DNA of 64,000 nucleotides from a virus (IMGVR_UViG_3300012964_000002:25427-89426), one strand, 5' to 3'. Shown: positions 3,410-30,454, counted from the stretch's first letter. Made by a program: numbers and translations. Notes: generated by a model from the letters alone, not told the origin.

Positions 3410-4282
3410 ATGGCGGCGAACGGACCTGGTTGGAAGATCGAGTGGGTGAAGTTCACGAAGGCCGACGCGCAGCAGGCGTTGGCGAAGTTCAAGGAAGATC
3501 GCGGCGTCGACGCGGCATGGGTTGACGCGCTCTCTCGCACGATGGACGCCGGGCTGTGGGAGGTCTACAGCCCGTCGCAGACGCCGATCGCGTTCGACCG
3601 TGGCGGCAACAGGCTGAACGGCAAGCACCGCCTCCTCGCGTTCATCAAGTCGAAGCTCGACGAGATCATCTTCCCCGTCGTTCGCAACCTCGACCCGGAC
3701 GAGTTCCGCAACTTCGACCAGAACGTGAAGCTGCGGAAGCATACCAACGCCCACCCTGGGCACATCAACCTTTTCCGCGACGAGGCGCGCGTCGGCTGGC
3801 TCGAGGTGATCGTTTCGGCGGACAAGAGCGTCAAGATGACCACTCAGCTGTTCGACCACCTGTGCGGTGGGAAGTGGAAGCGTCAGGTCAGGTGGGCCAC
3901 GGACAAGCTTCAGTCCCAGTCCAGGCAGGGCAAGGCTCCCTACGCCGCGGCCTTCATGTACGTTCATCGGCTGGATCCGGTGTTCGCTGACAAGGTCGTC
4001 GAGATGTGGCGCGACGGTCCGGACGGGAGCAAGCATCCGCACCTTCGTCGGATCCGCGACCGCGCGATGTCCGTGACGAAGAACGGTCACGGGGGGCGCG
4101 GGGAGCGCGAGGTGGACATGCTTCGTCTTCTTGGTGTGCTCGCGTACATGCATCAGGACAGGCCGCTTCCTAACAGGCTGTCGAACATTCTGGTCGGGAT
4201 CCGCTACTTCTCCGAGAAGCTGCGGGACGGGGCTGCCGCCCGCTGGGAAAAGCGGACGATTGTCGGGGCGGATGAGGTGTGA
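3410..4282 (+). CDS. ParB/DGQHR-like N-terminal domain protein
   Basis: IAFDRGGNRLNGKHRLLA resembles the ParB-like DGQHRL motif; lower-GC codon usage. Confidence 0.55.
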   Translation: MAANGPGWKIEWVKFTKADAQQALAKFKEDRGVDAAWVDALSRTMDAGLWEVYSPSQTPIAFDRGGNRLNGKHRLLAFIKSKLDEIIFPVVRNLDPDEFRNFDQNVKLRKHTNAHPGHINLFRDEARVGWLEVIVSADKSVKMTTQLFDHLCGGKWKRQVRWATDKLQSQSRQGKAPYAAAFMYVHRLDPVFADKVVEMWRDGPDGSKHPHLRRIRDRAMSVTKNGHGGRGEREVDMLRLLGVLAYMHQDRPLPNRLSNILVGIRYFSEKLRDGAAARWEKRTIVGADEV

Positions 4283-7024: not shown

Positions 7025-8694
7025 ACGTCCGCCGCCTCGAGCTCGTGAACGTGCTCGGCCACAAGAGGACCGAGCTGAACCTCCCGGAGCGCGGCGTGGT
7101 TCTCGTGACGGGCCCGAACGGCGCCGGGAAGTCGGCGCTGCCCGAGGCCGCCTCGTACGCGGTCTGGGGAAAGACCCTGCGCGGCACGCCGCCCTGGCGC
7201 AAGGACGGGTCTCCCGGGACCGTGGCGTGCGCGGCGGACTCCGTGGACGTCACGCGGGAGCGCTCCGGCTCCCGCGTCGGCCTGAGCTGGAAGGTTCCGG
7301 GCGACGAGGACCCGGCCGAGTTCGACACGACCACCAAGGCGCAGGAGGCGCTGGAGCACGTCGTCGGCTCGTGGGACGTCTGGCGGCGAACGTGCGTGTT
7401 CTCCTCCGCGGACGCCTCCCACTTCTCCGGGGCGACCGACGGGGAGCGGAAGCGCTTGCTCGAGGAGATCCTGGGGCTGGGTCGCTTCGACGTCGCGCTC
7501 GCCGCGTGCCGCGCGGACCTCAGGGCGGTGGAGACGCGCCGCTCGGCGGCCGACGGTGACGCGCGGGTCTTGCGGGAGCGGGTTCAGCGGATGAAGGACA
7601 GCCTGGGGCAGGCCCGCGCCTCGCTGCGCGCGCTTCCGGCGGCCCCGCCGCTCCCGACTTCCGCGTCCGCGGACCTCCTCCGGCTGAAGCTGGACAAGCT
7701 CAGGCAGAGCCGCGCCACCTGCGACCGCGAGCTCGCCACGGCGCAGGCGGCGCTTCGGTCCGCGGAGGCGCGCCGCGGGGCCGCCGAGAGCACGGTCGCC
7801 GCCCTGGAGCGGCAGGCGGCACGCACGAAGGAGAGCGTCTGCCACACCTGCGGGCAGACTATCAACGCGGGGCAGCGCGCGAAGATCGAGGCGGAGCTGG
7901 GCGCCGCGCGCGGGGAGGCGGCGAAGGCCGGAGGAGTCGCCACCGCCGCCGCGGACGAGGTGGCGGAGTCGGTCAAGGATCTGGAGGCGGAGCGTCAGGA
8001 CATCGACGAGGCCCTCCACCGCGTCCAGAAGGAGCAGAGCGCCGCGGAGGAGGCGGCCCGCTCCGCGCGGGCGCGCGAGACCCTGACCGCGCAGGCGGAC
8101 CAGGCGGAGAAGCACCTCAAGGGCGGGGAAGAGGAGCTGTTCAAGGCCGAGGCCGCGCTTGCCGTCGCCGTCTCCGAGGCGGCCGTCCTCGGCGCCGTCG
8201 AGCAGGTCTTGGGACTGCGCGGCGTGCGGGCGTCCATCCTCGGGCGCGCTCTCTCCGGGCTCGAGGTGGCGGTCAACGCGCGGGTCGCGCGCCTCTTCCG
8301 GGGTGGGGGCGTCGCGGTCGAGCTCAAGGCGTGGTCGGAGAAGAAGACGGGCGGGATCTCCGACGCCATCAGCATGGCCGTCTCGGGAGTGGGGGACGGG
8401 CACGGGTACAAGGCGGCGAGCCAGGGGCAGCGGCGCCGCCTCGACGTGGCGATGCTCCTCGCTCTCGCGGACGTCGCGGCCGCGGCGCACGGCGCGCGCG
8501 CCGGAACCATCTGGATGGACGAGGTCTTCGACGCGCTGGACCCGGAGGGAGAGGACGCCGTCTGCGGGCTGCTGCCGGAGATCGCGGCGGAGCGCTGCGT
8601 GGTGGTGATCACCCACTCCCCCTCCCTCGTTCAGCGGCTCCCTGCTACGATGCGAGTTCAGGTGGCGGACGGCGGCAAGCTGTCCGTCTCGTGA
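7021..8694 (+). CDS. Rad50/SbcC-like ATPase
   Basis: GPNGAGKS Walker A, coiled coil with CHTC zinc hook, ASQGQRRR signature, MDEVFDALD Walker B, VVITH. Confidence 0.92.
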   Translation: MNVRRLELVNVLGHKRTELNLPERGVVLVTGPNGAGKSALPEAASYAVWGKTLRGTPPWRKDGSPGTVACAADSVDVTRERSGSRVGLSWKVPGDEDPAEFDTTTKAQEALEHVVGSWDVWRRTCVFSSADASHFSGATDGERKRLLEEILGLGRFDVALAACRADLRAVETRRSAADGDARVLRERVQRMKDSLGQARASLRALPAAPPLPTSASADLLRLKLDKLRQSRATCDRELATAQAALRSAEARRGAAESTVAALERQAARTKESVCHTCGQTINAGQRAKIEAELGAARGEAAKAGGVATAAADEVAESVKDLEAERQDIDEALHRVQKEQSAAEEAARSARARETLTAQADQAEKHLKGGEEELFKAEAALAVAVSEAAVLGAVEQVLGLRGVRASILGRALSGLEVAVNARVARLFRGGGVAVELKAWSEKKTGGISDAISMAVSGVGDGHGYKAASQGQRRRLDVAMLLALADVAAAAHGARAGTIWMDEVFDALDPEGEDAVCGLLPEIAAERCVVVITHSPSLVQRLPATMRVQVADGGKLSVS

Positions 8695-8705
8695 GGAGGT
8701 CCGAC

Positions 8706-8897
8706 GTGGACCAGCGCCCCGGCTTCTGCAAGCACGTCAAGGTGTGCCCCGGAGATCCCGAGGAGCGCGTCGTCAAGTTGCCGTGCGGGAACCACGCGCG
8801 GGATGGGGCGGACTTCTGCTACGTGCACGACCCGAAGACGAAGAGGCGGCGCGATGAGAGCGCGGCCCGCGTCTCGGTGCTGATGCGGGCGCGCTGA
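8706..8897 (+). CDS. Small zinc-finger protein
   Basis: GAGGAGG RBS; C...C...C...CYVH. Confidence 0.5.
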   Translation: MDQRPGFCKHVKVCPGDPEERVVKLPCGNHARDGADFCYVHDPKTKRRRDESAARVSVLMRAR

Positions 8898-8908
8898 GGA
8901 GGTGCATC

Positions 8909-9607
8909 GTGGAGCAGCCGAAGGTTCACTGGGTCCCGATCGAGCAGACGCGGCCCCACCCTCGCAACTACCGCAAGCACCCGGAGGACCAGCTCGAGCA
9001 CATCGTCGCGTCGCTCCGTCAGCACGGGTTCTACCGCAACGTCGTGCTCGCCCGCGACGGGACGGTCCTCGCCGGGCACGGCGTGCGCGAGGCGACGGAG
9101 AGGATGAAGGGCACGCACCTTCCCGCCATCGTCCTCGACCTCGACCCGAACGACCCCCGCGCGCTGAAGGTGCTCGCGGGCGATAACGAGATCGGGAAGC
9201 TGGCCGAGACGGACGACCGCGCCCTGACCGAGCTCCTGAAGGAGGTTCTCCGGTCCGACGACGCGTTCGGGAAGCTCTCCGGGACCGGGTTCAACGAGGA
9301 GCAGCTCGCGGCGCTCGTCTTCACGACGCGGCCGGCCAGCGAGGTTCAGAGCATGGACGAGGCGGCCGCCTGGGTCGGGATGCCTGAGTACGAGGAGGGC
9401 GGCAGCACGATCAAGCTGGTCATCTCCTTCAAGTCGGACGAGGACCGCGCGCGCTTCCTCGCGGAGACGGGCATCCGCATCGACAAGAGCGCCATCAAGG
9501 GCAGCACGTGGTCGACGCGCTGGCCGTGGACCGACCGCGAGGACTCCGCGTCCGTGCGCTTCGAGACGAAGGAGGAGCCCCCGCCCGCGCCTCCCGAGGC
9601 GGCGTGA
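8909..9607 (+). CDS. ParB-like domain protein of the modification cluster
   Basis: PHPRNYRKH...SLRQHGF...VLAGHG...ALKVLAGDN. Confidence 0.8.
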   Translation: MEQPKVHWVPIEQTRPHPRNYRKHPEDQLEHIVASLRQHGFYRNVVLARDGTVLAGHGVREATERMKGTHLPAIVLDLDPNDPRALKVLAGDNEIGKLAETDDRALTELLKEVLRSDDAFGKLSGTGFNEEQLAALVFTTRPASEVQSMDEAAAWVGMPEYEEGGSTIKLVISFKSDEDRARFLAETGIRIDKSAIKGSTWSTRWPWTDREDSASVRFETKEEPPPAPPEAA

Positions 9608-10377
9608 CCGGGGCTCTCCCGCGCTACCCCGTGTACGTGCTCTCCAAGGGCAGGAGCGACCGCTGCCTGACGGCGAGGTTCCTGCTCCGCGACGGGGTGC
9701 CGTTCATCATCGCCGTGGAGCCGCACGAGGCCGACCTGTACGCCGCGGAGTTCGGGCGCGAGCGCCTGCTGATTCTCCCCTTCCGCGACGCCGGGACCGC
9801 CACGCCCGCGAGGAACGCCGTCAAGGAGCGCTCCGTCGCGGCTGGCGACGCGAGGCACTGGCAGCTCGACGACAACATCCGAGGAATCCGAGGCTACGTC
9901 GACGGCAAGCGCGTCCGGGTGAGGGGCGGGCCGGCGCTCCGCGAGGTCGAGGAGCTGGTGGACGGCTACGAGAACGTGGGCATCGCGGGCCTTCAGCACA
10001 CCGTCTTCCAGGACCGCTCGCGGCCGTTCCTCGTGAACCGTCAGGTCTACTCGTGCGTGCTGGTGGACAACCGTCTGCCGTTCCGCTGGCGCGGGGTGGC
10101 GCACCACGACACCGACTACTCTCTTCAGGTGCTCGTGGCCGGCCACTGCACGATCCTCGTCTGCGCCTTCGGCATCGAGAAGGCACAGACCATGTCGATG
10201 AAGGGCGGGATGACCGACGCCTACCTGGGCGACGGGAAGCTGCGGAAGGCCCACGAGATCCAGCGGCGGTGGCCCGGGCGCGGCATCAAGATCGTGCGGC
10301 GCAACGGCGTCCCAAGCGCCAGCATGGGGCGCGTCTGGTCGAAGTTCACCACCCCGCTGCGCCCGAGGTCCCCGTGA
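9604..10377 (+). CDS. TAGT/GREB1-like DNA glycosyltransferase, paralog 1
   Basis: YPVYVLSKGR, HWQLDDNI, YSCVLVDN, WRG..HHDTDYSLQVL, MKGG. Confidence 0.8.
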   Translation: MTGALPRYPVYVLSKGRSDRCLTARFLLRDGVPFIIAVEPHEADLYAAEFGRERLLILPFRDAGTATPARNAVKERSVAAGDARHWQLDDNIRGIRGYVDGKRVRVRGGPALREVEELVDGYENVGIAGLQHTVFQDRSRPFLVNRQVYSCVLVDNRLPFRWRGVAHHDTDYSLQVLVAGHCTILVCAFGIEKAQTMSMKGGMTDAYLGDGKLRKAHEIQRRWPGRGIKIVRRNGVPSASMGRVWSKFTTPLRPRSP

Positions 10378-11261
10378 CGCTCCCGCGCTACCCGGTGTAC
10401 GTGATCTCGAAGGGGCGGCATGACTGCTGCCTGACCGCCCGCGCGTTCGTGAAGGATGGGGTGCCCTTCCGCCTGGTGGTGGAGCCGCAGGAGCGGGAGC
10501 TGTACGCGCGGGAGTTCGGGGGCGGCCCGCTGCTGGTGACGCCCTTCTCGAACCTCGGCCTGGGCTCGATCCCCGTCCGCAACTTTGTCTGGGAGCACGC
10601 GAAGGCTTCCGGCGCGGAGCGGCACTGGATCTTCGACGACAACATCTCCGGCATCTGGCGCCGCTGGAAGGCGCGGAAGATCCGGTGCGAGGCCGGCGTC
10701 GCGCTCGCCGCCTCCGAAGACTTCGTCGACCGCTACGAGAACGTCGCGATCGCGGGCCTCAACTACTACATGTTCTCGGTGAACAAGACGAAGCAGCCGC
10801 CCTTCTACCTGAACGTCCACGTCTACTCGGCGCTGCTGATCCTGAACGACCTGCCGTTCCGCTGGCGCGGCCGCTACAACGAGGACACCGACCTCTGCCT
10901 CCAGGTGCTCTCCGCCGGCTGGTGCACGGTCCTCTTCAACGCCTTCCTCGCGTGGAAGATGACGACCATGACGATGAAGGGCGGGAACGCGGCCGAGCTC
11001 TACAAGGGCGACGGGCGCCTCAAGATGGCGCGGTCGCTCGAGCGGGCGTGGCCGGGCGTCGTCACGACGCGGCGCCGCTTCCGCCGCCCGCAGCACGTCG
11101 TGAAGGGAGCGTGGCGCGGGTTCGACACGCCGCTCAAGCTCAGGCCGGGCGTGGACCTTTCCGCGCTTCCGAAGGTGGACGAGCGGGGGATGGAGATCGT
11201 CCGCGTGAAGGAGATCCGGAGCGCGGAGCTCAGGCAGATGGTCGAGGAGCGGGAGAGGTGA
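10374..11261 (+). CDS. TAGT/GREB1-like DNA glycosyltransferase, paralog 2
   Basis: YPVYVISKGR, HWIFDDNI, WRGRYNEDTDLCLQVL, MKGGN. Confidence 0.85.
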   Translation: MTLPRYPVYVISKGRHDCCLTARAFVKDGVPFRLVVEPQERELYAREFGGGPLLVTPFSNLGLGSIPVRNFVWEHAKASGAERHWIFDDNISGIWRRWKARKIRCEAGVALAASEDFVDRYENVAIAGLNYYMFSVNKTKQPPFYLNVHVYSALLILNDLPFRWRGRYNEDTDLCLQVLSAGWCTVLFNAFLAWKMTTMTMKGGNAAELYKGDGRLKMARSLERAWPGVVTTRRRFRRPQHVVKGAWRGFDTPLKLRPGVDLSALPKVDERGMEIVRVKEIRSAELRQMVEERER

Positions 11262-11494
11262 GCTGGATTTCGCTGAGCGACGCGGCCGACCGCCTGGGGC
11301 TGCTCCCCGACGAGCTTTCCAAGATGATGCTCGTCACGCACCGGAACGGCACGTCCTTGGTGATGCATCCTCCGCGCAAGTGCTTCAGCGGCAAGATCCG
11401 GGTGACGCACGGGCCGCGCGTGTGGGAACCAGACTTGGAGCCGTGGGCCGCGGAAAGGGCGGCGGGGCTGATCCCGTGGGGAACAATCTCGTGA
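11258..11494 (+). CDS. Xis/MerR-like HTH family paralog
   Basis: SWISLSDAADRLGL...RVWEPDLEPWAAERAAGLI. Confidence 0.7.
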   Translation: MSWISLSDAADRLGLLPDELSKMMLVTHRNGTSLVMHPPRKCFSGKIRVTHGPRVWEPDLEPWAAERAAGLIPWGTIS

Positions 11495-11994
11495 GCGGGC
11501 TCCGTCCTCTTCGTCCTGTGCTGGTCGGGCAGGCGCCCGGGCCGGGCGGCGCCCCGCTCGGCCCGCTGCGGGGCGGGCGCGTCGGGCGCCGCCTCGCGGA
11601 CGCGGCGGGGCTTCCGGAGGAGCGGCTCGCGGAGGTCTTCGAGCTGTGGAACCTCCTCGGCGCCTGGCCGGGCCGCGCCGGCGAGAAGGGGGACCGCTTC
11701 CCGCTCCCGGCCGCCCGCGCGGCCGCGGCGCGCCTGCTGCCTCTCCTTGACGGGCACCACGTCGTCCTGCTGGGGTGGAACGTCGAGCGTGCGTTCGGGC
11801 TGGGAATCGAGGCGCCGCTCCGCTGGCTGCAGCACGAGTGGGCGGAGGGCGAGATGCTGGTCGCCGTTCTGCCCCACCCGTCGGGCGTGAACCTCTGGTG
11901 GAACCGGGCGGAGAACGTCGCGGCGGCGCGCGTGTTCATGCGCGGGCTCGTCGAGCACGCCGCCGACCTGCGCGAGGGCGCGCCCCGTGCTTGA
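11491..11994 (+). CDS. Uracil-DNA glycosylase-like protein
   Basis: LVGQAPG motif 1; VVLLG; VLPHPSGVNLWWN motif 2. Confidence 0.8.
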   Translation: MSGLRPLRPVLVGQAPGPGGAPLGPLRGGRVGRRLADAAGLPEERLAEVFELWNLLGAWPGRAGEKGDRFPLPAARAAAARLLPLLDGHHVVLLGWNVERAFGLGIEAPLRWLQHEWAEGEMLVAVLPHPSGVNLWWNRAENVAAARVFMRGLVEHAADLREGAPRA

Positions 11995-12775
11995 CGTCCT
12001 GCTCGACGCGGGGAAGGGGCAGGGAGCCGTCGTTGTCCACGGCGACGGGATGGAGCTGCTCCGCGCGCGCCCCGACCGATCCGCCGGCCTCGTCCTGACC
12101 GACCCTCCCTACGACCCGCGGACGCACGAGGGGGCGCGCACGAACCGGGAGGGGGCGGGCGACAAGTCGCCCATCCTGTTCGCGCCGTTCTCCGAGGAGC
12201 AGGTGCGCGAGCTGGCGCGCGAGGCGTGCCGCGTCACCCGCGCCTGGGTGGTGATGACGCTGGAGTACAGGATGGCCGTCCACTTGGAGGACGACCCGCC
12301 GCCGGGCGTGCGGTTCGTGCGCCTGGGGATCTGGGACAAGCTCCGCACCGGCGCGCCCCAGAAGTCGGGTGACCGCCCCGGGATGGGGTACGAGGCGGTC
12401 GCGATCCTCCACCGCGACGACGTCGGTCGGATGCGCTGGAACGGGCACGGGCGTGACGCGGTCTTCCGCCACGCCGTCGTGCGCGGCGGGCACCCCACGG
12501 AGAAGCCGGTCGGCCTGGGCGTCGAGCTCGTGCGGCTGTTCTCCGACCCGGGCGACGAGGTGATCGATCCCTTCTGCGGCTCCGGCGCGTTCTTGGAGGC
12601 CGCGAAGGTGGAGGGACGTCGCGCGGTCGGCGTCGAGCTCGACCTGGCGTGGGCCAGGAGGGCGGCGCGCCGGCTCTCCCAGGCGGTCATCGCCGCGCCC
12701 GCGGCGCCCCGCGCTGAGCAGCCCGATCTCCTCGTGGTGCCTCGGACGAGGCGCCCCCGTGCCGCCCTTCCTTGA
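11987..12775 (+). CDS. DNA N6-adenine/N4-cytosine methyltransferase (beta class)
   Basis: TDPPY, HPTEKP, IDPFCGSG order. Confidence 0.92.
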   Translation: MLDVLLDAGKGQGAVVVHGDGMELLRARPDRSAGLVLTDPPYDPRTHEGARTNREGAGDKSPILFAPFSEEQVRELAREACRVTRAWVVMTLEYRMAVHLEDDPPPGVRFVRLGIWDKLRTGAPQKSGDRPGMGYEAVAILHRDDVGRMRWNGHGRDAVFRHAVVRGGHPTEKPVGLGVELVRLFSDPGDEVIDPFCGSGAFLEAAKVEGRRAVGVELDLAWARRAARRLSQAVIAAPAAPRAEQPDLLVVPRTRRPRAALP

Positions 12776-12799
12776 CTTGTCAGAGGTCTCGGCTATGTT
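12772..12799 (+). promoter_or_regulatory. Putative sigma70-type promoter
   Basis: TTGACT-N16-TATGTT in a locally AT-richer patch ahead of the HNH/HTH array. Confidence 0.5.
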
Positions 12800-12814
12800 G
12801 GTGATGTGCTCGCC

Positions 12815-13006
12815 ATGGGTGCCACCGTCTCCAGCTCCGCGCTTCCGCGCCTCCGCCTCGTGCCGAACGATCTCGAGGCGCGCCCGCACAACCCGCTGGC
12901 GCCGCTCGCGCACGTCGCGTTCTGCTACCGCTGCGCCCTCTTCTGCGTCCCGCTCGGGACGAAGGAGCGCTGCCCGGAGTGCCAGATGGTGTACCCGCGG
13001 GAATAG
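12815..13006 (+). CDS. Small zinc-ribbon protein
   Basis: CYRC...CPEC. Confidence 0.55.
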   Translation: MGATVSSSALPRLRLVPNDLEARPHNPLAPLAHVAFCYRCALFCVPLGTKERCPECQMVYPRE

Positions 13007-13033
13007 CGGCACGTTCCGGGCAAGTCTCAGTCC

Positions 13034-13516
13034 ATGAGCCTGCGTCGGAAGCACGGGCACTCTTACGGTTCTGACGGCAAGCCGTCCCGCACGTACAAGA
13101 GCTGGCAGGCCATGATCGAGCGGTGCACGCGGCCGGCGCACCACGCGTGGTCTAACTACGGGGGGCGCGGAATCGAGGTCTGCGAGCGATGGCGCTCCTT
13201 CGAGGCGTTCCTCGCCGACATGGGCGAACGTCCCGTCGGGAAGACGCTGGACCGCTACCCCAACCGTGACGGAAACTACGAGCCCGGCAACTGCCGGTGG
13301 GCGACGTGGGCTGAGCAGCGTAGCAACTCCAGGCAGAACCACATGCTGACGTTCCGGGGTGAGGAGTGCACGCTTACGGAGTGGTCTCGGCGCGTCGACA
13401 TTGGCAAGTCCACAATACGGCAGCGCTTGCTGAAGGGGTGGAGCGTGGAGGCCGCGCTGACGACGGCACCGTTGCCGCACGAGCACTGCGGTAGCATCAG
13501 AAAGCGGACGTCGTGA
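13034..13516 (+). CDS. HNH homing endonuclease-like protein
   Basis: YKSWQAMIERC...YGGRGIEVCERW...TLDR..NRDGNYEPGNCRWAT. Confidence 0.9.
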   Translation: MSLRRKHGHSYGSDGKPSRTYKSWQAMIERCTRPAHHAWSNYGGRGIEVCERWRSFEAFLADMGERPVGKTLDRYPNRDGNYEPGNCRWATWAEQRSNSRQNHMLTFRGEECTLTEWSRRVDIGKSTIRQRLLKGWSVEAALTTAPLPHEHCGSIRKRTS

Positions 13517-13842
13517 GGCAGCGCGGGGCCGTCGTCGGGCGTCTCCCGCGCGGGTGGGTATCGTTGGACGCAGCGGCCGCGCTCCTCTGCATGGAGCCGT
13601 GGCAGTTCTATAAGTGCCTGAGCGACCGCGAGATTTCATTTTACCCGCGGGGGGTTTCGCACTACCGCTGGGGCGCCGCCAACCTGCTCAACCGCCTGCC
13701 CGCGCTCGAGCTCGTAGGCTGGCGCGGCAGCAGGCACCTGTACGACTGGAACACGCGCGAGCACCGCGCGACGCACGTGCGGAGGCGCGCCGTCGTGGAG
13801 TGGATCGCGCTGCGCGCAGCGCGGCTGCTCTCAGCCGGCTGA
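13513..13842 (+). CDS. HTH family paralog
   Basis: GWVSLDAAAALLC...ATHVRRRAVVEWIALRAARLLS. Confidence 0.7.
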   Translation: MRQRGAVVGRLPRGWVSLDAAAALLCMEPWQFYKCLSDREISFYPRGVSHYRWGAANLLNRLPALELVGWRGSRHLYDWNTREHRATHVRRRAVVEWIALRAARLLSAG

Positions 13843-13874
13843 GAATGCGCGGCGCGGAGGGCAAGACCTCGGGC

Positions 13875-14096
13875 GTGACCGACGACGGATGGATCCCGCT
13901 CGAGGAGGCCGCGGAGCGCGCCGGGTTTGCCGACAAGAACGACCTCCTGCGTTCGCTCCCGTCCGTCCTCTTCGACGACGCCAGCATGGACCAGGGGCCG
14001 ACGGAGATCCTCGCAAGCTACCTGGAAAACTGGATGGCGCGCCGCGTCGTCCTGATGCTAGAAGTCGACGCTCCGGCGGTGAGGTCCCGTGGCTGA
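13875..14096 (+). CDS. HTH family paralog, short form
   Basis: GWIPLEEAAERAGF...LENWMARRVVLML; alternative ATG at 13845. Confidence 0.65.
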   Translation: MTDDGWIPLEEAAERAGFADKNDLLRSLPSVLFDDASMDQGPTEILASYLENWMARRVVLMLEVDAPAVRSRG

Positions 14097-14505
14097 CGAG
14101 TGGATCACGCTGGAGGAGGCGGCCGACGTCCTCCGGACCACGGTCGGGGACCTGGCAACGGAGCTGTCTCGCTCTGGATCCCTGCTGTCGAGTGGGCAGC
14201 TTCCGCCGTCTGTCGAGCTCACGCCGGCGTGGCCGAACGTGCGTGTGTGGCACATCTGGACGCCCAAAGGGATCGGTGCGCAGGGCAACCGGTTCGACGA
14301 GGTCAGCCTGCGGTCGCGCTCGCTCGGCGCGTTCAAGGCCACGCACGTCCACTCCGGGGACCTCGAGGTGTGGGCCGCCGACCGCGCCGCGCGCCTCGTG
14401 AGCACGTGCAAGGTGTGCTTCGGAAAGGGGTTCGTTCCGTCGAAGCCGCCGATGCGAGCGGTGGTTCCGTGCCCGATGTGCGGCGGATCGGCCAGGCGAC
14501 CGTGA
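14089..14505 (+). CDS. HTH family paralog with C-terminal DnaJ-like zinc finger
   Basis: EWITLEEAADVL...ATHVHSGDLEVWAADRAARLVS CKVCFGKG...CPMCGG. Confidence 0.75.
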   Translation: MADEWITLEEAADVLRTTVGDLATELSRSGSLLSSGQLPPSVELTPAWPNVRVWHIWTPKGIGAQGNRFDEVSLRSRSLGAFKATHVHSGDLEVWAADRAARLVSTCKVCFGKGFVPSKPPMRAVVPCPMCGGSARRP

Positions 14506-14855
14506 GCGAGTGGCTCACCGTGAAGGCGGCCGCGCGGGAGGCCGGGTACATCGACTGGGTAGACCTCGTGTTCGACCTGGAGAGCTCGCTCGCGCCGCCG
14601 GGCATGATCTTCGACGTCTCGCTGGTGAAGACGGAGCTGCGCCGCGGGGTGGAGCAGTTCACCGGCACGTACCGGTGGAGCCCTTATGGGCCCAAGACGT
14701 TCATGTTCTCGCACCTGCACGCGGAGGACTTCAGCGCGTGGGTGGCGCGTCGCGCGGAGCGCATGCTGTCGAGCCGGTGCCGCCGATGCGGGGGAACTGG
14801 CCAGGTTGTCAACCAGGGGATCCGGGAGAGGTGCGAGTGCCGCGGCCTTCGATGA
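14502..14855 (+). CDS. HTH family paralog with zinc finger
   Basis: EWLTVKAAAREAG...SHLHAEDFSAWVARRAERMLS CRRCGGTG...CEC. Confidence 0.75.
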   Translation: MSEWLTVKAAAREAGYIDWVDLVFDLESSLAPPGMIFDVSLVKTELRRGVEQFTGTYRWSPYGPKTFMFSHLHAEDFSAWVARRAERMLSSRCRRCGGTGQVVNQGIRERCECRGLR

Positions 14856-15274
14856 TCTTCTCGTTCGACGAGGGAATGTGGCTGCGCTGCGTGTCGCCGA
14901 AGACGCCGTGGCACCGCCACGACGAGGGGATGTGGCTGTCGGAAGCGCGCGCGGCCGAGCTGCTCGACCTCGGCGACTGCGGGTGCCGAGGTGAGTGGAG
15001 GTGCGGGCCGTGGCCGAGGCACGCGCGGATGGCGGAGACGAGTCCCTTCAACGGGCGAGAGCTGGCCTTCCCGAAGGGGGTTGGCGGACCTCCGGAGCTG
15101 CGGTTCGCCTGGCAGCGCCGCGACGCTCTCGGACGCTGGAAGCCGCCCGGAGACGACTCCTACTTTTGGCGTCCGGACGTCGAGCGGTTCGTCGCGTGGT
15201 ACGTGGAGCACCTGGCGGAGCAGTCGGCGCGGTTGCTGTCGAACGGCGGATCGGAAGAGGAGCTGGCCGGGTGA
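14852..15274 (+). CDS. HTH family paralog
   Basis: MWLSEARAAELLDL...FWRPDVERFV...AEQSARLLS. Confidence 0.65.
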   Translation: MIFSFDEGMWLRCVSPKTPWHRHDEGMWLSEARAAELLDLGDCGCRGEWRCGPWPRHARMAETSPFNGRELAFPKGVGGPPELRFAWQRRDALGRWKPPGDDSYFWRPDVERFVAWYVEHLAEQSARLLSNGGSEEELAG

Positions 15275-15537
15275 GCGCGAGCCACGAGCACGCCGGGACG
15301 TTGATGCTTCGCGTCGTTCTCGCCACCGCCAGAGGTTCCACGGAGCGTTGGCCGTCCGACACCTTCGTGGAGGAGATGACGGTGTGTGCGGAGTGCGGCG
15401 CGCTGTTCGTGCCGCCGGACCAGATCGAGGAGGTCGCCGCGCGCGCGTCGGAGCGCATCCTGCGCGACCGTCAGCAGCAGGTTCCCCGGACGGAGCACGA
15501 ATCGACCGCGTCCGTCGGCCCTTGGAAGCGGCGATGA
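15271..15537 (+). CDS. Hypothetical protein with CxxC
   Basis: Coupled ORF; CAECG; EEVAARASERIL. Confidence 0.55.
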   Translation: MSASHEHAGTLMLRVVLATARGSTERWPSDTFVEEMTVCAECGALFVPPDQIEEVAARASERILRDRQQQVPRTEHESTASVGPWKRR

Positions 15538-15854
15538 CCGGCTGGCTGACCGTCAGGAAGGCGGCGGAGCGCGCGGGGCTTTCCCCAGAGGCGATGGCCG
15601 GCCTGCTGCTGGGGTACGCACCACTGCTTGAGCTCAGGGGGCCGGAGGGGAAGCCGCTGTTCTCCGACGTCGACCGCTTCCTCGTGCGCGAGCGGGACGT
15701 GGATCGCGTGCTCGCCGACGGCGCCGCGCGAATGATGTCGTCGTGCAGGGTGTGCAGCGACACGGGGTCCGTCACGGTGGAGGACATGAACGGGCCGCCC
15801 TACTCGGTGCTGTGCCCGAGCTGCCGTCCTGACAGGGGGTCGGCGTGGCGGTGA
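15534..15854 (+). CDS. HTH family paralog with zinc finger
   Basis: GWLTVRKAAERAGLS...VRERDVDRVLADGAARMMS CRVC...CPSC. Confidence 0.75.
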   Translation: MTGWLTVRKAAERAGLSPEAMAGLLLGYAPLLELRGPEGKPLFSDVDRFLVRERDVDRVLADGAARMMSSCRVCSDTGSVTVEDMNGPPYSVLCPSCRPDRGSAWR

Positions 15855-16345
15855 ACGTCGATCTCGAGCTCTGGGTGCCACTCGACGAGGCGAGCGAGCT
15901 TCTCGCCTTGGACCTGGCGCGGGAGCTGGGGGACTCGCTGAACGGTTGGGTGTGGTTCGCGCGGCACTTCGTTCTCGGGACGACGCCGCCGGACATGCGG
16001 AGGCCGGACGGGATGACGCTTCTGCTGGCCAACGTGCCTGGCGTGTCCGCCTGGCCGGTTCGCGTCAGAAAGGGGAACGTGCGACCCACGCCTTCGTGGG
16101 GCGGCGACGTGCTGGTCTGCATGGTCAGCCACGTGTGGAGAGGCGACGTCGACGTGTTCCTCGCGGAGCGCGCCGCCGCGCTGCTCGGGACGGGGGGCGT
16201 CGCGGTGAGGAGGGGGCGAACGCACTACTTCTGCCCGGTGTGCCAGACGAACGTGATGCCGGTCCTGATTGGAATAACCAGGGTGAACCTGCCGCCCGCG
16301 TGCTTTCGGTGCGGCGCGCGGTTCATCGGGGCGGAGCGCGGGTGA
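15851..16345 (+). CDS. HTH family paralog with zinc ribbon
   Basis: LWVPLDEASELLAL...VSHVWRGDVDVFLAERAAALLG...CPVC...CFRC. Confidence 0.75.
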   Translation: MNVDLELWVPLDEASELLALDLARELGDSLNGWVWFARHFVLGTTPPDMRRPDGMTLLLANVPGVSAWPVRVRKGNVRPTPSWGGDVLVCMVSHVWRGDVDVFLAERAAALLGTGGVAVRRGRTHYFCPVCQTNVMPVLIGITRVNLPPACFRCGARFIGAERG

Positions 16346-16689
16346 GCTGGGTGCCGATCGAGGAGGCGGCCGCCGCGCGCGGCCTGTCCGGCGGAGACCT
16401 CGCCGACGTGCTTCAGCATCGGGTGGTGGTCAGGAACAGAAGGAACGCCAGGCTTCGCGGCGAGACGTGGGCGCGCGGGATCGTCGCGGTGAAGGAGGGC
16501 AGGCTTGGCGTGCCGTGGTGGGCCGTCAAGACCGGCGACGACGTGGCCTTCGTGTCGCACGTCTGGGGCCCGGACGTGGACGGCGCCCTCGCCGCCGCGG
16601 CGGCCGAGCACCTCGAGGTGGACGCGCATCGCGCGCGCCTGGCCAAGGAGCTGAAGATGCTCCGCGAGAGCAAGACGAGGCGGCGGTGA
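16342..16689 (+). CDS. HTH family paralog
   Basis: SWVPIEEAAAARGLS...VSHVWGPDVDGALAAAAAEHL. Confidence 0.75.
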   Translation: MSWVPIEEAAAARGLSGGDLADVLQHRVVVRNRRNARLRGETWARGIVAVKEGRLGVPWWAVKTGDDVAFVSHVWGPDVDGALAAAAAEHLEVDAHRARLAKELKMLRESKTRRR

Positions 16690-17066
16690 GCTGGATCTCC
16701 TGGGACGAGGCGGCCGCGCGCGCCGGCGTGCCCGTCCTCGAGTTCGCGCGCTCCGTCGCGCGCACTTCCTGGACGGTCTCGTGGTCGATCTTTTCTCCGC
16801 AGGACCGGGCGTTCAAGCAGGCGACGTCGTACAGCTGCTGGACGCAGGACACGGTGCGCGCCGTCGTCGTGCGGGTGGTGTCGTTCGACGGCGACACCTC
16901 GCTCGAGGCCGTCGCCAGAAGGGAGCGCGACTCCGGGGTGTGGCGCGGGGCGGACGGGTGGGCCGGGTCCCTGCTCGACTCGACGCACCTGTGGGACGAG
17001 GACGTGAACAGGCTGGCGGCCATGCTCGCCGCCGAGCTCGTCGAGGACGGGGCGAGGGCGCGATGA
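16686..17066 (+). CDS. HTH family paralog
   Basis: SWISWDEAAARAGV...STHLWDEDVNRLAAMLAAELV. Confidence 0.75.
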   Translation: MSWISWDEAAARAGVPVLEFARSVARTSWTVSWSIFSPQDRAFKQATSYSCWTQDTVRAVVVRVVSFDGDTSLEAVARRERDSGVWRGADGWAGSLLDSTHLWDEDVNRLAAMLAAELVEDGARAR

Positions 17067-17522
17067 GCTGGGTGACCTTGGAAGAGGCGGCGGAGCGCCT
17101 CGGGCTGTCGAAGGAGGACTTCGCGCTGGAGCTGGCCGAGTCCGGCGCCGCCGAGCGCTGGTGGGCCAAGAGCGATCCGAAGAATCCGAATCTGTTCCGC
17201 GGGGCGCTGCGCGTGACGACCCGGCAGGGGCCGACCGTTTCCCTGAGGAAGGGGATGCACAGGGGCACGCGCCTCGGGGCGATCGCCGCCTCGCACGTCT
17301 GGGAGCCGGACCTCGAGCCCTGGGCCGCCTGGTGGGCCGCCGAGCAGCTCCGGGACCGCTCGCTCGACTACGTGGCCGACTTCGCCGACGGCGACCGGCT
17401 CGACAGGGTGGCGCGCGACTGGGGGGTTCCTGCGCCACCCCGGGGAGGACGACGTCGCCTTCCGCGGCCGCCTCGCCGCCGCCTCGGCCCTCTTCGCCGG
17501 AAAGGGGCCCGACGTCCCCTAG
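17063..17522 (+). CDS. HTH family paralog with apparent frameshift at a G6 run (17421-17426)
   Basis: SWVTLEEAAERLGLS...ASHVWEPDLEPWAAWWAAEQL; removing one G gives DWGFLRHPGEDDVAFRGRL...DVP* ending 17522. Confidence 0.6.
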
Positions 17523-17691
17523 CCCGGGCCGGCCGCCCCCGGAGGTTCCCGGCACCTCCCCGGCGCCCCGGGGAGCCTCGCGCCGCCCCGCCCCCCTCCT
17601 CCCGCCCCTCCCCGGGGAGGAAAGGCGCCCGCGCGGCCCGCCGGAACCTCCCCCTTGACCGCCGCCGCCCCTCGGAGGGAGAGTTTCCCGC

Positions 17692-18480
17692 ATGGGCTCA
17701 GGCCGCGTCCCCTACACCCGCGAGCTGTACGACATCCTCGTCGCCGCCTTCCGGGAGGCCCCCGGCAACTACGCGCACGCCCTCCGCAGGTCCGGCATGT
17801 CCGACAGGAAGGCCATGCGCCGCGTCTGGGAGAAGGGCTGGAAGAATCTCCCGTGGGCGCGCCCGATTCGGCTCGTGCTGGAGGAGGAGCAGAGGGACGC
17901 CCTGCTCGAGGTGGCGCGCCTGAAGGAGCGGGAGCGCGAGGAGCAGGAGAGGCGGCGCGAGGAGGTCAGGGCGGAGGCCATCAAGTCGCGCGTGGAGGAG
18001 GGGCAGGCGGCCGACCTCGCGCGGCGGAACAGCATCGCGGCCATGGCGTCGATGCGCCCGCTGCTCGTCGGCATCCACAAGCTCGCGCCTCGGCTCGAGG
18101 CGGTGCTCTCGGACCCGCAGCTAAAGGTGGACCCGGAGAAGGCGGCGAAGCTCATCCTCGACATCTCGCGGGCGTCGAAGTTCGCGGGGGAGACGGCCCA
18201 CCGCGCCATCGTGATGAGCCGCCTCATCCTCGGGAAGCCTACCGACATCCTCGGCATCGGCGGCGCGGCCGACGACGTGGACGACATGTCCATGGAGCAG
18301 TGCCTGGAGGAGCTCAAGGTCATCGAGCAGGAGGCGCGCGAGGCGCTCACGACCGCGGCCGCCCCGCGCGAGCTCACCGTCATCCAGGGCGGGAAGCAGG
18401 CGGCGGACGGCACCCCGCCGCCCGACGACGACGGCAAGGGCCGCGGCGGTTCCGGGTCTCCGCCTCCGCCCGCACCGTGA
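17692..18480 (+). CDS. Possible terminase small subunit / DNA-binding protein
   Basis: Helical protein with coiled coil and ILGKPTDI; upstream of TerL; strong codon bias. Confidence 0.5.
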   Translation: MGSGRVPYTRELYDILVAAFREAPGNYAHALRRSGMSDRKAMRRVWEKGWKNLPWARPIRLVLEEEQRDALLEVARLKEREREEQERRREEVRAEAIKSRVEEGQAADLARRNSIAAMASMRPLLVGIHKLAPRLEAVLSDPQLKVDPEKAAKLILDISRASKFAGETAHRAIVMSRLILGKPTDILGIGGAADDVDDMSMEQCLEELKVIEQEAREALTTAAAPRELTVIQGGKQAADGTPPPDDDGKGRGGSGSPPPPAP

Positions 18481-18491
18481 AGGGAGAGGTC

Positions 18492-18758
18492 ATGACGCGG
18501 CTCAAGGCGTGGTTCAAGCGGCTTCGCGCGGCGCTCGCTCGATGGCAGGAGCGCCGCGAGCGCGCTCGCGCGGTGGAGCGGTGGGACGGGGAGCGGTGCT
18601 GGATGTGCCGCGCCAGGAAGGACGCGCACGTCGGGCGCATGGGTGAGACCTGCCCCGACGGCAGCGGGGGGTTCGTCGGGCAGCACATCAGGCGGCGGCC
18701 GGGCGCGGAGATCGAGCGGGCACTCGCTGCCCATCCCGTGCGGGGCGCGTGCCTGTGA
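18492..18758 (+). CDS. Hypothetical protein
   Basis: GGAGAGG RBS; CWMC...H...C. Confidence 0.5.
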   Translation: MTRLKAWFKRLRAALARWQERRERARAVERWDGERCWMCRARKDAHVGRMGETCPDGSGGFVGQHIRRRPGAEIERALAAHPVRGACL

Positions 18759-19117
18759 GCCCCTGCGTGAGGGCGATCACCGTCAGGTTCGAGGTCGTGC
18801 AACAGAACGGTCTCGAGATCGAGTTCGACGAGACCTTCGCGACGGACTCGGTGGAGAGGGCGCTCGAGCTAGCGGAAGAGTACCGCCACGTTCCGCCGCT
18901 TCCGCTGGCCATGGCCGCCCGGGTCGTGGCTGACGACCTGTACGAGAACGGGAGGACGTACCCCAGGAAGAACTGGTGCGTCACGCACCAGCGACCGATG
19001 CCAGCTCACGACGTGACGTCGGCGTGCCGCACCCAGAAGCTGACCGAGGCGATGTTCGCCTCCGCCTCGGCGTCCATGCTGGAGGAGGACGCGCGTCGCC
19101 GCGCGCGCCGCTCGTGA
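18755..19117 (+). CDS. Hypothetical protein
   Basis: GTGA overlaps at both ends. Confidence 0.5.
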   Translation: MSPCVRAITVRFEVVQQNGLEIEFDETFATDSVERALELAEEYRHVPPLPLAMAARVVADDLYENGRTYPRKNWCVTHQRPMPAHDVTSACRTQKLTEAMFASASASMLEEDARRRARRS

Positions 19118-20613
19118 ACCCCTCTGGCTTCGCCGCCACGGCCGTTCGCCGGAAGCTGCGCCACGCGCGGCAGCTGCGCGCCCGCGTCGCGCGGGACGAC
19201 GTCAACGCCTTCATGCAGTTCGTGATGCGGGACGAGAAGACGAACGTCCCGATCCGCCAGGCACCCGTTCACAAGGCGTGGCAGTGGGAGGTGTCGCACC
19301 ACAACCGGGTGCTGATCTGGTCCCACCCCGAGAGCGGGAAGACGCAGCAGCTGTCGATCGGCCGCGTGCTCTGGGAGCTGGGGAGGAACACCGCGCTGCG
19401 CGTCGCCGTCATCTCCAGGACGGACAACCTCGCCACGAAGATCGTGACGACCGTCGGGAACCTCGTCCTCAAGAGCGAGGAGCTCAGGGCCGTCTTCCCC
19501 CACCTCCGCAAGAGCACGACCGCGCGCGACTCGTGGACCACGCACGCCATCACCGTCGAGCGCAACAACCCCGGCATGAAGGAGCCCAGCGTCCAGGCGT
19601 TCGGCGCGAGCTCGCGGTCCCTCATCGGCAACCGCCTCGACCTCCTCGTCATCGACGACATCCTCGACGACCAGAACACCAACTCCGCAAAGCAGATGGA
19701 GGACATGTGGGTCTGGTACAACTCCCTGGTCGAGGGGCGTCTCGACACGAACGGGCGCGTCATCGTCGTGGGGAACGCCTGGCACCCGCAGGACTTCCTC
19801 CACCGCCTCGCGCGCCAGCCGGGGTGGAAGGCGCTCCGCTACCCGGTGGTGGACGACGAGACGGGAGAGCCGCGCTGGCCGGAGCGCTGGCCCACGAAGC
19901 GCATCCTCGAGACGAAGACCAAGCTCGACTCCGCGCGCGCCGGCGAGTTCGCCCGCACGATGCTCTGCCTCGCGCGCGACGACGCGCAGAGCCGCTTCCA
20001 CCAAAAGAGCATCGACGCCTGCAAGGCGCTCGGCGCCGGCATGCGTCTCTGGGGTGGCCTGCGAGAGGTTCCGGCGGGTCACCGCGTCTACACCGGGGTC
20101 GACCTGGCCGTGAAGCGCGACGCCAGCGCGGACTTCACCTGCCTGTTCACCATCATCGTGCACCCGGACGGCTCGCGACAGGTGCTCAACATCCAGACCG
20201 GGCGCTGGCGCAAGAGCGAGATCGTCAACCGCATCATCCACGTCCACGCCCGCTTCAACGGCATCGTCATGGTCGAGGACAACGCCGCCCAAGACTACAT
20301 CTTGCAGGACGTCGTCGACCGCTCCTCCGTGCCGGTCAAGCCGTTCACGACGGGGCGCAACAAGATGAACATCGAGTACGGCGTCGAGTCCCTCTCCGCC
20401 GAGATGGACAACGGAAAGTGGATAATCCCGTCCGAGGGGGGCAAGTCTCATCCCGAGGTGGAAGCGTGGATCCTCGAGATGCTCTACTACGACCCGCGGA
20501 AGCACACGGGGGACCGCCTGATGGCCTCGTGGATCGCGCGGGAGGCGGCGCGGACCGGGGGCGGAGAGGGCGTGCGCGCGTGGGCCGGGTCTCTGGACAC
20601 GATGGCTCGCTGA
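19114..20613 (+). CDS. terL: Terminase large subunit
   Basis: HPESGKT Walker A, LLVIDD Walker B, VVGNAWH, WPERWP, GVDLA...DFT nuclease, HTGDRLMA. Confidence 0.93.
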   Translation: MNPSGFAATAVRRKLRHARQLRARVARDDVNAFMQFVMRDEKTNVPIRQAPVHKAWQWEVSHHNRVLIWSHPESGKTQQLSIGRVLWELGRNTALRVAVISRTDNLATKIVTTVGNLVLKSEELRAVFPHLRKSTTARDSWTTHAITVERNNPGMKEPSVQAFGASSRSLIGNRLDLLVIDDILDDQNTNSAKQMEDMWVWYNSLVEGRLDTNGRVIVVGNAWHPQDFLHRLARQPGWKALRYPVVDDETGEPRWPERWPTKRILETKTKLDSARAGEFARTMLCLARDDAQSRFHQKSIDACKALGAGMRLWGGLREVPAGHRVYTGVDLAVKRDASADFTCLFTIIVHPDGSRQVLNIQTGRWRKSEIVNRIIHVHARFNGIVMVEDNAAQDYILQDVVDRSSVPVKPFTTGRNKMNIEYGVESLSAEMDNGKWIIPSEGGKSHPEVEAWILEMLYYDPRKHTGDRLMASWIAREAARTGGGEGVRAWAGSLDTMAR

Positions 20614-25617: not shown

Positions 25618-26180
25618 GCGCGCTTGGCGAGCTCGCTTGGCAGTTCCGCGTCGCGTTCTCTCGGCGGTGGAACTGGGACGAGCTTCCGGAGGGCCTGCCG
25701 CCCGGCTGGCCGGACGGGGACCCGGCGCGTCGAGAGCGGCACGAGGCGCTGTCGGCCGCCGTCATGCTGGCGGGCTTCAGCCCGGGGCCCGTGCTCGAGG
25801 CGATGCGGATGATCGAGCGAGGGCGGTTCGTGCTCGTGGGGACCGCCGCGCTCCGCCTCCGCGGGCACGACGTCGCCGCGAGCGACCTCGACTTCCTCTG
25901 CGAGCACGCGCCGGGAGGGCTCGAGGACGGGACGGGCAGCGGCGGCTCCACGGTGCGGGAGGTCGTGCTTCCGCAGCTTCGCGGATTCGTCTCGCACTCG
26001 CGCGTCAAGGTCGACTTCATCTACGCGGACAGGCCGCGGCGTCCGTTCCTGACGCGGTTCCCGGACGTCATCCTTGGCGTGCCAGTGGCGAGCGAGGAGG
26101 ACGTGATCGGCCTCAAGGCGTGGGCGAACAGGGACAAGGATCGTTGGTTCCTCGCCAGGTGGAGGGCCGGGTGTGCCTGA
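25614..26180 (+). CDS. Pol-beta superfamily nucleotidyltransferase-like protein
   Basis: LVGTAAL..RG...SDLDF, KVDF, VPVAS...LK....R.KD. Confidence 0.7.
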   Translation: MSALGELAWQFRVAFSRRWNWDELPEGLPPGWPDGDPARRERHEALSAAVMLAGFSPGPVLEAMRMIERGRFVLVGTAALRLRGHDVAASDLDFLCEHAPGGLEDGTGSGGSTVREVVLPQLRGFVSHSRVKVDFIYADRPRRPFLTRFPDVILGVPVASEEDVIGLKAWANRDKDRWFLARWRAGCA

Positions 26181-26523
26181 CGAGTGGATCTCCAGCGTGG
26201 AGTTCGAGCGGGACCTCCGCTCCGAGCTCCTGCCTCCTCTTCAGGTGGCTCACGGGACTCCGACGCCGGCGAGAGGCCCGAACGTCAAGGGGGAGCCCGT
26301 GATCCGCTTCCGCCTGCGGCCCGGCGCGAAGAAGATGTCGAGCAAGCTGGACTTCGAGTACAACGTCGCGGACTTCGAGCGCTGGAAGGCGTGGCGCGCG
26401 GCGCGGATGCTCCGCGAGGACATCGTGTCGATCACCCTGACGTGCGAGCACGGCGTCGCCTCGTCGCGCCCCTGCGACGAGTGCGTCTACACGTGGCTGC
26501 GCAAGCTGCGACCGACCCCTTGA
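26173..26523 (+). CDS. Dispersed HTH family paralog
   Basis: DEWISSVEF...DFERWKAWRAARML, then CEHG...CDEC. Confidence 0.55.
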   Translation: MPDEWISSVEFERDLRSELLPPLQVAHGTPTPARGPNVKGEPVIRFRLRPGAKKMSSKLDFEYNVADFERWKAWRAARMLREDIVSITLTCEHGVASSRPCDECVYTWLRKLRPTP

Positions 26524-29976: not shown

Positions 29977-30233
29977 CGCGCACCGCGTTTCCCAACAGGG
30001 ACGCGATCCCCACGGTCATCCATCGGCCGCCCTACGGCCAGGGCTGGGGCAGGGAGGCGGAGGTCTACCTCGCGCACCCGACCGTCACGCCGGACGACGT
30101 CGCCCGCCTGCTCCACACCGGCAAGCTCCTCGTCTGGCGGGAGGAGCCCGCCGGCGTGATCTGGGTTCGCGCCTCCGTGTCCTGGGAAGAGGTCGAGGCA
30201 GAGCTCGCGCGCTCTCCGGGGCGCGCGCCGTGA
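29973..30233 (+). CDS. Hypothetical protein
   Basis: Coupled ORF. Confidence 0.45.
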   Translation: MTRTAFPNRDAIPTVIHRPPYGQGWGREAEVYLAHPTVTPDDVARLLHTGKLLVWREEPAGVIWVRASVSWEEVEAELARSPGRAP

Positions 30234-30454
30234 CGGATCCGACCGCCGGGTGGCTCACGGCGGCGGAGGCCGCGGCCGCGTTCCCCGGGCTGACCCCGGA
30301 GCGGCTCGCCGCCTTCGCCGCGCTCGGGGCGCTCCGGCAGAAGCTGCTGCACCTCGAGCCCGGGCGCCCGACCGTGCCGCTCTACGACCGGGACGAGCTC
30401 GAGGTGCTGGCGGCGGCGGACGCCGCCTCGCTCCTCGCGGGCCCGCGCGCCTGA
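30230..30454 (+). CDS. Minimal Xis/MerR-like HTH protein (family prototype)
   Basis: GWLTAAEAAA..PGLT...LYDRDELE..AAADAASLL. Confidence 0.7.
   Translation: MTDPTAGWLTAAEAAAAFPGLTPERLAAFAALGALRQKLLHLEPGRPTVPLYDRDELEVLAAADAASLLAGPRA

Follow-up and report, generated by a model that had tools for sequence, protein, structure and literature searches.

An old tandem array of eleven paralogous genes with a helix-turn-helix-like N-terminus in an environmental phage genome

The stretch of DNA analysed here (the window) comprises 64,000 nucleotides, bases 25427-89426 of the complete 89,426-bp virus record IMGVR_UViG_3300012964_000002, which carries direct terminal repeats; positions are counted from the first base of the window unless stated otherwise. 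Its GC content is ~70%, and gene calling based on GC content at third codon positions (GC3) places nearly all plausible genes on the plus strand. Wetland metagenome runs from two studies hold near-identical DNA and may be the source samples. Between positions 11258 and 17522 lie eleven small plus-strand genes, here numbered m1 to m11, which the original prediction, made from the sequence alone, took to be part of a tandem array of about ten paralogous helix-turn-helix (HTH) genes with fixed ends and hypervariable, mutually unrelated middles. We find that the array is real and that its members are true paralogues built on one scaffold. It is an old, lineage-specific expansion that comprises the eleven tandem copies together with one clear and one doubtful dispersed copy.

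All eleven array open reading frames (ORFs) and both dispersed ORFs are present as described. In a six-frame translation of the 64-kb window, the N-terminal pattern W[ILV][STP]..[EDKS]A[AS] occurs nine times and a relaxed form of it 12 times, and the C-terminal patterns occur five and seven times; every match is on the plus strand and inside a named ORF, the N-terminal ones at ORF starts, and the three minus-strand frames contain none. A profile of the 13 copies has 14 matching stretches genome-wide, all at family genes and none in the 25 kb that precede the window. Paralogy is further borne out by a profile built solely from outside, i.e., from ten proteins of other phages and zero window sequences, which was searched against the 745 six-frame ORFs of the window and recovers 11 of them at E values of 9e-20 to 0.016, with no other match. 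This outside-only profile does not recover the ORFs at 14852 and 30230, for which only profiles that include them suggest membership. The gene caller lists eight of the array genes, and these have a GC3 of 0.88-0.95 in the named frames; those at 11258, 14089, and 17063 fall outside its thresholds. As had been proposed, most copies are translationally coupled, in that 10 of the 11 members begin before the preceding gene has ended, with an overlap of 4 nt (RTGA) or 8 nt. Given this coupling and their common orientation, the copies are probably made together, a timing that we infer from the layout; no RNA run is among the sequencing runs listed as holding this DNA.

The individual genes are as follows, with E values from the outside-only profile. 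The minimal member m1 (11258..11494; 78 aa; E 2e-5) is embedded in a DNA-modification cassette, where its GTG start overlaps by 4 nt the stop of the second of two genes for TET-associated glycosyltransferases (TAGT). The start of m2 (13513..13842; 109 aa; E 9e-7; conserved W at 13555) overlaps the stop of an HNH gene, also by 4 nt. Member m3 (13875..14096; E 8e-5), of 73 aa, or 83 aa with the start at 13845 that public data give, has the shortest middle and is acidic, with an isoelectric point (pI) of 4.2. The best-scoring member is m4 (14089..14505; 138 aa; E 9e-20), with a tail of the form CxxCxGxG...CPxC that reads as a zinc ribbon; zinc-ribbon tails are likewise predicted for m5 (14502..14855; 117 aa; E 3e-10), m7 (15534..15854; 106 aa; E 0.016), and m8 (15851..16345; 164 aa; E 1.5e-9), the last of them long. 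A C-terminal zinc finger had been ascribed to four copies, and these four all carry CxxC...CxxC-type motifs; the matches in Pfam are below cut-off only (for m4, Anti-TRAP at E 5e-4 and DnaJ_CXXCXGXG at E 0.02). Farther on, m9 (16342..16689; 115 aa; E 8e-8) has a basic helical tail, and m10 (16686..17066; 126 aa; E 0.012) is acidic and differs by one residue in a sibling assembly (T>C at 16827).

Three places in the array call for qualification. Member m6 (14852..15274; 140 aa) is divergent, with an insertion in its C-terminal helix, and its start region contains an 18-nt direct near-duplicate (14867-14884 and 14918-14935; 17 of 18 positions identical by eye) that doubles a six-residue N-terminal motif, so that the true start may be the ATG at 14927. 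Immediately after it, an 88-aa plus-strand ORF (15271..15537) is coupled on both sides and has a CxxC motif, and it does not match the family profile; brief stretches of its DNA resemble the end of m8 (16309-16335) and the start of m10 (16704-16738), which hints that the ORF may be what is left of a gene junction since deleted. At the far end, in m11 (17063..17522; E 4e-13), a run of six Gs (17421-17426) shifts the frame, and the TAG at 17520-17522 is reached only in the second frame; one G fewer would give read-through. The 155-aa orthologue of m11 in a sister phage, P0012, is one continuous ORF whose tail matches the second frame of m11. The G run also occurs in a single spanning contig, which is possibly the source assembly itself and therefore offers no independent check, and it may reflect a mistake in the assembly, a genuine break, or programmed frameshifting. 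Pieces and joints from X2 and X3, short and of low identity, look like other organisms and were set aside. The array thus does extend to 17522, as had been stated, with the provisos that this end depends on a frame change and that a non-member is included.

Beyond the array, two dispersed plus-strand members had been claimed. The ORF at 26173..26523 (116 aa, with a Cys/His tail) is a divergent member, matched by the outside-only profile at E 0.005 through its C-terminal block only. The ORF at 30230..30454 (74 aa), thought to be a minimal winged HTH protein, is at best a possible minimal relative of uncertain membership: it scores E 1.4e-4 with a profile that includes it and has no HTH_17 match at E<=10. 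When compared with PDB sequences, it drew TALE-repeat proteins with no stretch passing alone, which we read as a short compositional match.

Across a family alignment of 28 rows (A2, which joins the 13 window copies of alignment A1 with 15 outside members), the proteins share a single layout. A conserved 26-residue strand-helix-turn-helix comes first, followed by a variable loop of 0-34 aa; next come a conserved strand, presumably of the wing, that closes with a Gly or Pro-Gly turn, and a second variable stretch; then a conserved (S/T)H(V/L)W strand and a block of constant length, 22 residues, that contains the helix D(L/V)xxWxAxRAAxLL; and lastly an optional tail, often a putative zinc ribbon. 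The middles are therefore not unrelated, as they had been held to be, since an alternating hydrophobic strand (typically h-x-V-R-V) with its Gly or Pro-Gly turn aligns in 26 of the 28 rows. The C-terminal block is fixed at 22 residues in 27 of them. The placement of the inserts was correctly foreseen: the variable parts are positioned between the second HTH helix and the conserved strand plus helix, which is the wing site of such domains.

The family is rare. An exhaustive HMMER search of 1.84 billion representative proteins at E<=1e-3 gave 38 matches, namely 11 of the window's own (ten exact and one with a single-residue difference), 15 single-domain outside members, and 12 longer proteins matched mostly through the N-terminal part of the family profile. 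Ten of these longer proteins were scanned, and all match Pfam HTH_17 and/or other HTH families, six with HTH_17 at 2.4e-58 to 4.3e-15; in another, P0031, HTH_8 leads and HTH_17 reaches only 7e-4. Among the matches listed by word-indexed protein searches with A1 and A2 are only the window's own proteins and three of an 89,064-bp contig. No match was found for P0012, P0016, and P0021 in viral contigs, for P0022 in genome contigs, or for P0011 in metagenome contigs, and a search with the window's large terminase (TerL) gave one distant fragment without the family. Nor is the family recognized by curated collections: none of the 13 window copies exceeds a cut-off in Pfam or in PHROGs (a QueC-like match at E 0.007 in 1 of 13 looks like noise), and none of the 28 rows does so in NCBIfam (single matches, 1 of 28 each at E 0.012-0.092, again look like noise). 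Against PDB sequences A2 returned nothing relevant, the best being a designed zinc finger, a designed repeat protein (through the N-terminal helix), and an ATP synthase epsilon subunit at E 0.7; the ESM Atlas gave no usable match and no model for m4; and tblastn of m4 and P0022 against 50,697 GenBank phage records gave no match. The suspicion that this architecture lacked a described equivalent is upheld, to the extent of these databases and records and of the full-text literature, where none was found.

The 89,064-bp contig comes from a sister phage whose TerL is 78% identical to that of the window, and it holds one-to-one orthologues of five array members: m4/P0041, m8/P0033, m9/P0013, m10/P0023, and m11/P0012, with identities of 64, 46, 53, 43, and 43% and tree supports of 99/99, 98/98, 99/94, 98/95, and 90/90, respectively. 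Compared with the 78% of TerL, the 43-64% of the orthologues indicates quicker evolution of the array than of the core. The middles are less conserved than the ends in four pairs (23-34% identical columns); in the fifth, that of m4, the middle, at 66%, equals them. Contigs of 120,613, 19,500, and 5,302 bp hold two members each (P0022/P0037, P0016/P0020, and P0011/P0036), so that all four outside contigs of at least 5.3 kb carry at least two members from different clades; the TerL of the 120,613-bp contig is 58% identical to that of the window. Among the paralogues themselves, identity is 19-40% in global alignment, and DNA identity between copies is 63-85% over 17-60 nt, in conserved blocks only. 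Taken with the lack of a reverse transcriptase match, these low identities speak for old divergence and not for active hypervariation or recent amplification.

The comparison with IMG/VR relatives that had been advised was extended to a next ring of 80 loci (TerL 41-54% identical, ~1.07 Mb in total), 0 of which contains a family member at E<=0.01 or a TAGT gene. In four loci with both flanks, the stretch from an SbcC- or ParB-like gene to a conserved 262-aa gene spans 4.6-7.3 kb, compared with 8.1 kb here, and is rich in ORFans, with a Pfam match at E<=1e-3 in 3 of 20 ORFs in the two loci scanned. Flanked by the ParB-like gene and the packaging genes, the array is thus what one narrow sub-lineage alone carries in the variable accessory region of this clade. 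A blastp screen of 38 related loci for tandem paralogues 5′ of TerL proved too insensitive, detecting a single pair in the window's own array, and was dropped.

The neighboring genes are likewise on the plus strand. To the left, an SbcC/Rad50-like gene lies 5′ of the array, and a run from 8909 to 13516 leads from the ParB-like gene (8909-9607; PHROG 620, E 1.4e-25) through the DNA-modification genes to the HNH endonuclease gene (13034-13516; phrog_3377, E 8.8e-51). The two tandem TAGT paralogues (PF20691; E 2.9e-30 and 8.4e-46 for the pair) occupy 9631-10377 and 10374-11261; Tet_JBP is matched nowhere in the complete genome, an absence that is uninformative because controls are equally unmatched. 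After m1 come a UDG-like gene (11518-11994), an N6/N4 DNA methyltransferase gene (11987-12775), and a 66-aa Cys-rich ORF (12806-13006), which heads the run that continues into the HNH gene and the array. Upstream of this run, within the 30 nt that separate the methyltransferase gene from the Cys-rich ORF, is a putative sigma-70-like promoter (12772..12799; TTGACT, 16 nt, TATGTT), the sole such match in 8500-19500, i.e., one found against a shuffle mean of 0.2. Short matches to the methyltransferase and HNH genes were all that blastn of 11001-19000 returned.

To the right (17692..20613), the array is followed by the 262-aa gene (17692-18480), a 120-aa ORF, and the TerL gene (19114-20613; phrog_38, E 3.1e-55). 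The 262-aa protein is without a Pfam or PHROG match, and homologues occur in 38 of 81 related loci (the 80 loci plus L001), upstream of TerL where mapped (L015, L016, L027, L036, and L038). Its gene, which marks the right edge of the variable region, may encode the small terminase or a partner in packaging. The TerL clade of environmental phages is large: at least 1052 of the scored candidate proteins reach E<=1e-10, many of them encoded on contigs of 80-120 kb, and intein-type insertions occur in some (PF14528 in two matches). In the 170-nt gap after the array, folding is no stronger than in shuffled sequences (z 0.03), and Rfam has no match in 11000-19200. Separately, a GC-rich intergenic stretch at 17552-17785 shows a summed contig depth of ~3300-3600 in two wetland runs, compared with <=28 elsewhere in those runs, suggesting a very common or low-complexity sequence that is common to other organisms.

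What the array does must be approached through its scaffold. The N-terminal block is supported as a homologue of the HTH_17/Xis-type HTH: it aligns over 26 columns with 19 full HTH_17 repeats at an hhalign probability of 93.8% (E 1.7e-7), a figure that is not fully independent, as these repeats were cut from proteins found by the family's own profile. With the genome's one canonical HTH_17 protein alone, A2 aligns in the same register, at the N-terminus only and with a probability of 32%. That protein (80 aa; G000 11869-12111, equivalent to L082 170-412, outside the window) matches a PHROG excisionase/regulator at E 8e-4, and its gene is unrelated to the array; in a six-frame genome search with HTH_17 it scores 36.4 bits, compared with 13.6 bits for m11, so that an ordinary form coexists with the remodelled family in the same phage. 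Weak HTH_17 matches also fall on the expected ends of the model, positions 1-29 for P0025 (E 0.021), 1-16 for m11 (E 0.15), and 32-51 for the C-terminal block of P0016 (E 0.005). The structure of the excisionase-type protein RdfS, as described in PMC11963761, runs in the order strand, two helices, two wing strands, last helix. The family has its strand plus Gly turn and then its strand plus helix in that order, with long inserts between and with a C-terminal alignment that is not significant. Because the order of elements agrees, we read the family as an excisionase-type winged helix with two insertion points in the wing region, in which the C-terminal half would form a wing strand and the last helix. 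The Xis-type assignment made at the outset therefore stands for the N-terminal half, and its MerR component does not: MerR and MerR_1 (PF13411 and PF00376) have no match among the 13 window copies at E<=1, and the outside member P0024 matches MerR at E 0.064 over 16 residues.

From this scaffold we arrive, with middling confidence, at a set of specialized binders whose first-choice target would be nucleic acid or nucleoprotein. On this explanation, an excisionase-type (HTH_17-like) winged helix would have been remodelled such that, with its enlarged, basic wing and tail, each copy most likely binds a target of its own, while the conserved and mostly acidic HTH and the C-terminal helix would provide the core of the fold and perhaps a common contact surface. 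The copies might then serve as phage regulators or DNA-coating factors. Mean net charges across the 28 members, by our own sums, are ~+2.2 for the middle and ~+1.9 for the tail. In canonical HTH proteins the second helix reads the major groove. In the family this would-be recognition helix has a mean net charge of -0.86 (28 members), compared with +2.84 in the 19 canonical HTH_17 repeats, which makes classic HTH reading of DNA doubtful and would fit protein binding just as well. This is the first of several results that weigh against a remodelled DNA binder, along with the limited independence of the HTH_17 alignment noted above. Eleven of the 28 members have a pI of <=6.2. The 27-bit cut-off of HTH_17 (PF12728) is reached by 0 of the 13 window copies and by none of the 15 outside members, the best E of the latter being 0.005. 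The C-terminal block does not align significantly with the HTH_17 repeats (probability 0.5%) or with lambda Nu1 (hhalign probability 0.6%, E 0.099). The acidic helix leaves two live options, i.e., that the copies bind nucleic acid via the enlarged wing and zinc tail, or that they bind proteins.

The second option, a lesser but real possibility in our estimation, holds that a degenerate winged-helix scaffold presents enlarged loops and zinc knuckles, each of which would take hold of a separate protein of the host or the phage in the service of host takeover, anti-defence, or inhibition of regulators. Besides the acidic second helix, it can draw on an HTH that is net negative in 25 of the 28 rows, on the spread of pI from 4.2 to 10.4, and on tails of CxxCxGxG type with their sub-threshold matches to Anti-TRAP and the DnaJ zinc domain, both of which are protein-binding modules. 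The location of the array in an ORFan-rich variable region and its faster evolution than TerL are also in keeping with it. All characterized HTH_17 proteins, to our knowledge, bind DNA as well, and contact with nucleic acid would lead one to expect the basic character that the wings and tails show; moreover, one-to-one orthologues retained at 78% TerL identity point to a stable division of labor and not to rapid arms-race turnover. A precedent for protein contacts does exist in the excisionase-type TorI, whose C-terminal part binds TorR and IntS according to PMC3509656. Unlikely, in our judgment, is a further scheme in which the eleven coupled genes would encode subunits of one co-assembling system: the acidic face formed by the HTH and last helix of one copy would dock onto the basic wing of the next, giving mixed head-to-tail filaments or a coat on hypermodified phage DNA or the host nucleoid, from which the wings and zinc tails particular to each copy would point outward. 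For this, RdfS and BldC supply a model, being described as polymerizing head-to-tail on DNA via wing-to-HTH contacts (PMC11963761).

It is quite unlikely that the family works with the adjoining hypermodification genes, whether as targeting or reader subunits or as regulators for glycosylated/methylated phage DNA, as the original prediction had entertained among other roles. The proposed link rests on a single embedded copy, m1, whose start overlaps the second TAGT stop, and only 1 of the 11 array copies is inside the cassette; the remainder of the array follows within 2 kb, behind a promoter-like site and the HNH gene. That TAGT and the family are both missing from all 80 related loci is weak evidence when the region is variable, and the unmatched TET/JBP does not bear on the matter. 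Very improbable, finally, is active hypervariation, be it by a diversity-generating retroelement or cassette shuffling, or else recent amplification under selection, even though fixed ends with variable middles superficially resemble targeted diversification and tandem or segmental amplification is a known phage response, as in T4 evolving counter-defence (PMC9391042). RVT_1 is not matched in the complete 89,426-bp genome, a control search being positive in 3 of 14 genomes, and the 11000-17800 region contains no near-identical or template/variable repeat pair. The divergent paralogues, five of which have their own orthologues in the sister phage, contradict both this explanation and the description of the array as hypervariable.

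If the copies do bind different targets, as the specialized-binder explanation would have it, the array would amount to a natural library of binders on one scaffold. For the environmental phages of 80-120 kb, which form a large uncultured clade, it would then offer compact access to functions in host takeover or DNA coating. Were co-assembly to prove true instead, it would constitute a new kind of phage nucleoprotein, a chromatin-like or decoy multi-paralogue scaffold without a described counterpart. Its immediate use is limited, given that the family is rare and that a cultured host is lacking. Since the family escapes Pfam, PHROGs, and NCBIfam, current annotation shows such arrays as successive hypothetical proteins.

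Several known systems resemble the array in part. Closest are HTH_17/excisionase-type proteins (PF12728; Xis-type recombination directionality factors, RdfS, BldC, and TorI), which share the N-terminal strand-helix-turn-helix, small size, and phage setting, as well as the succession of HTH, wing strands, and last helix reported for RdfS (PMC11963761). The family differs in a wing enlarged from a few residues to tens, at two insertion points, in a second HTH helix that is acidic and not basic, in a predicted zinc-ribbon tail in about half of its members, in the presence here of eleven coupled copies and not one, and in that no member reaches the Pfam cut-off. The nearest outside matches of the family profile (E 1e-6 to 8e-4) are the tandem HTH_17-repeat proteins P0026, P0032, P0034, and P0035 (HTH_17 at 2.3e-27 to 2.4e-58), which use the family's N-terminal motif repeatedly. 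Theirs are compact canonical repeats of ~44 aa with basic recognition helices, fused in one chain, whereas the family consists of separate genes with enlarged wings.

More distant likenesses concern single features. The N-terminus of lambda Nu1 is a MerR-like winged helix, and the best local hhalign comparison with gpNu1 puts the family's C-terminal strand and helix on residues 41-57, the expected post-wing register, below significance; the array, too, lies just upstream of packaging genes, and Phage_Nu1 (PF07471) has no match in the genome at E<=10. DnaJ and Anti-TRAP resemble the tails of m4, m5, m7, P0011, P0016, and P0022, in which CxxCxGxG or a close form is followed by a second CxxC; the family differs in that its matches are below Pfam cut-offs and in having one knuckle pair, other members having plain zinc ribbons or no tail. 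Segmental amplifications in T4 are reportedly recent, with near-identical copies, whereas those of the family are kept as distinct orthologues at 19-40% identity. The likeness to T4 counter-defence is that, in a lytic phage, a small accessory gene has been multiplied in tandem (PMC9391042). The fold class and small phage HTH proteins are thus well known, and what is newly described is the remodelled domain in a stable eleven-gene array: a very common small DNA-binding fold that appears to have gained a larger wing and zinc knuckles, with a reading helix turned acidic, and to have been multiplied into a stable dozen of probably specialized copies in a lytic phage.

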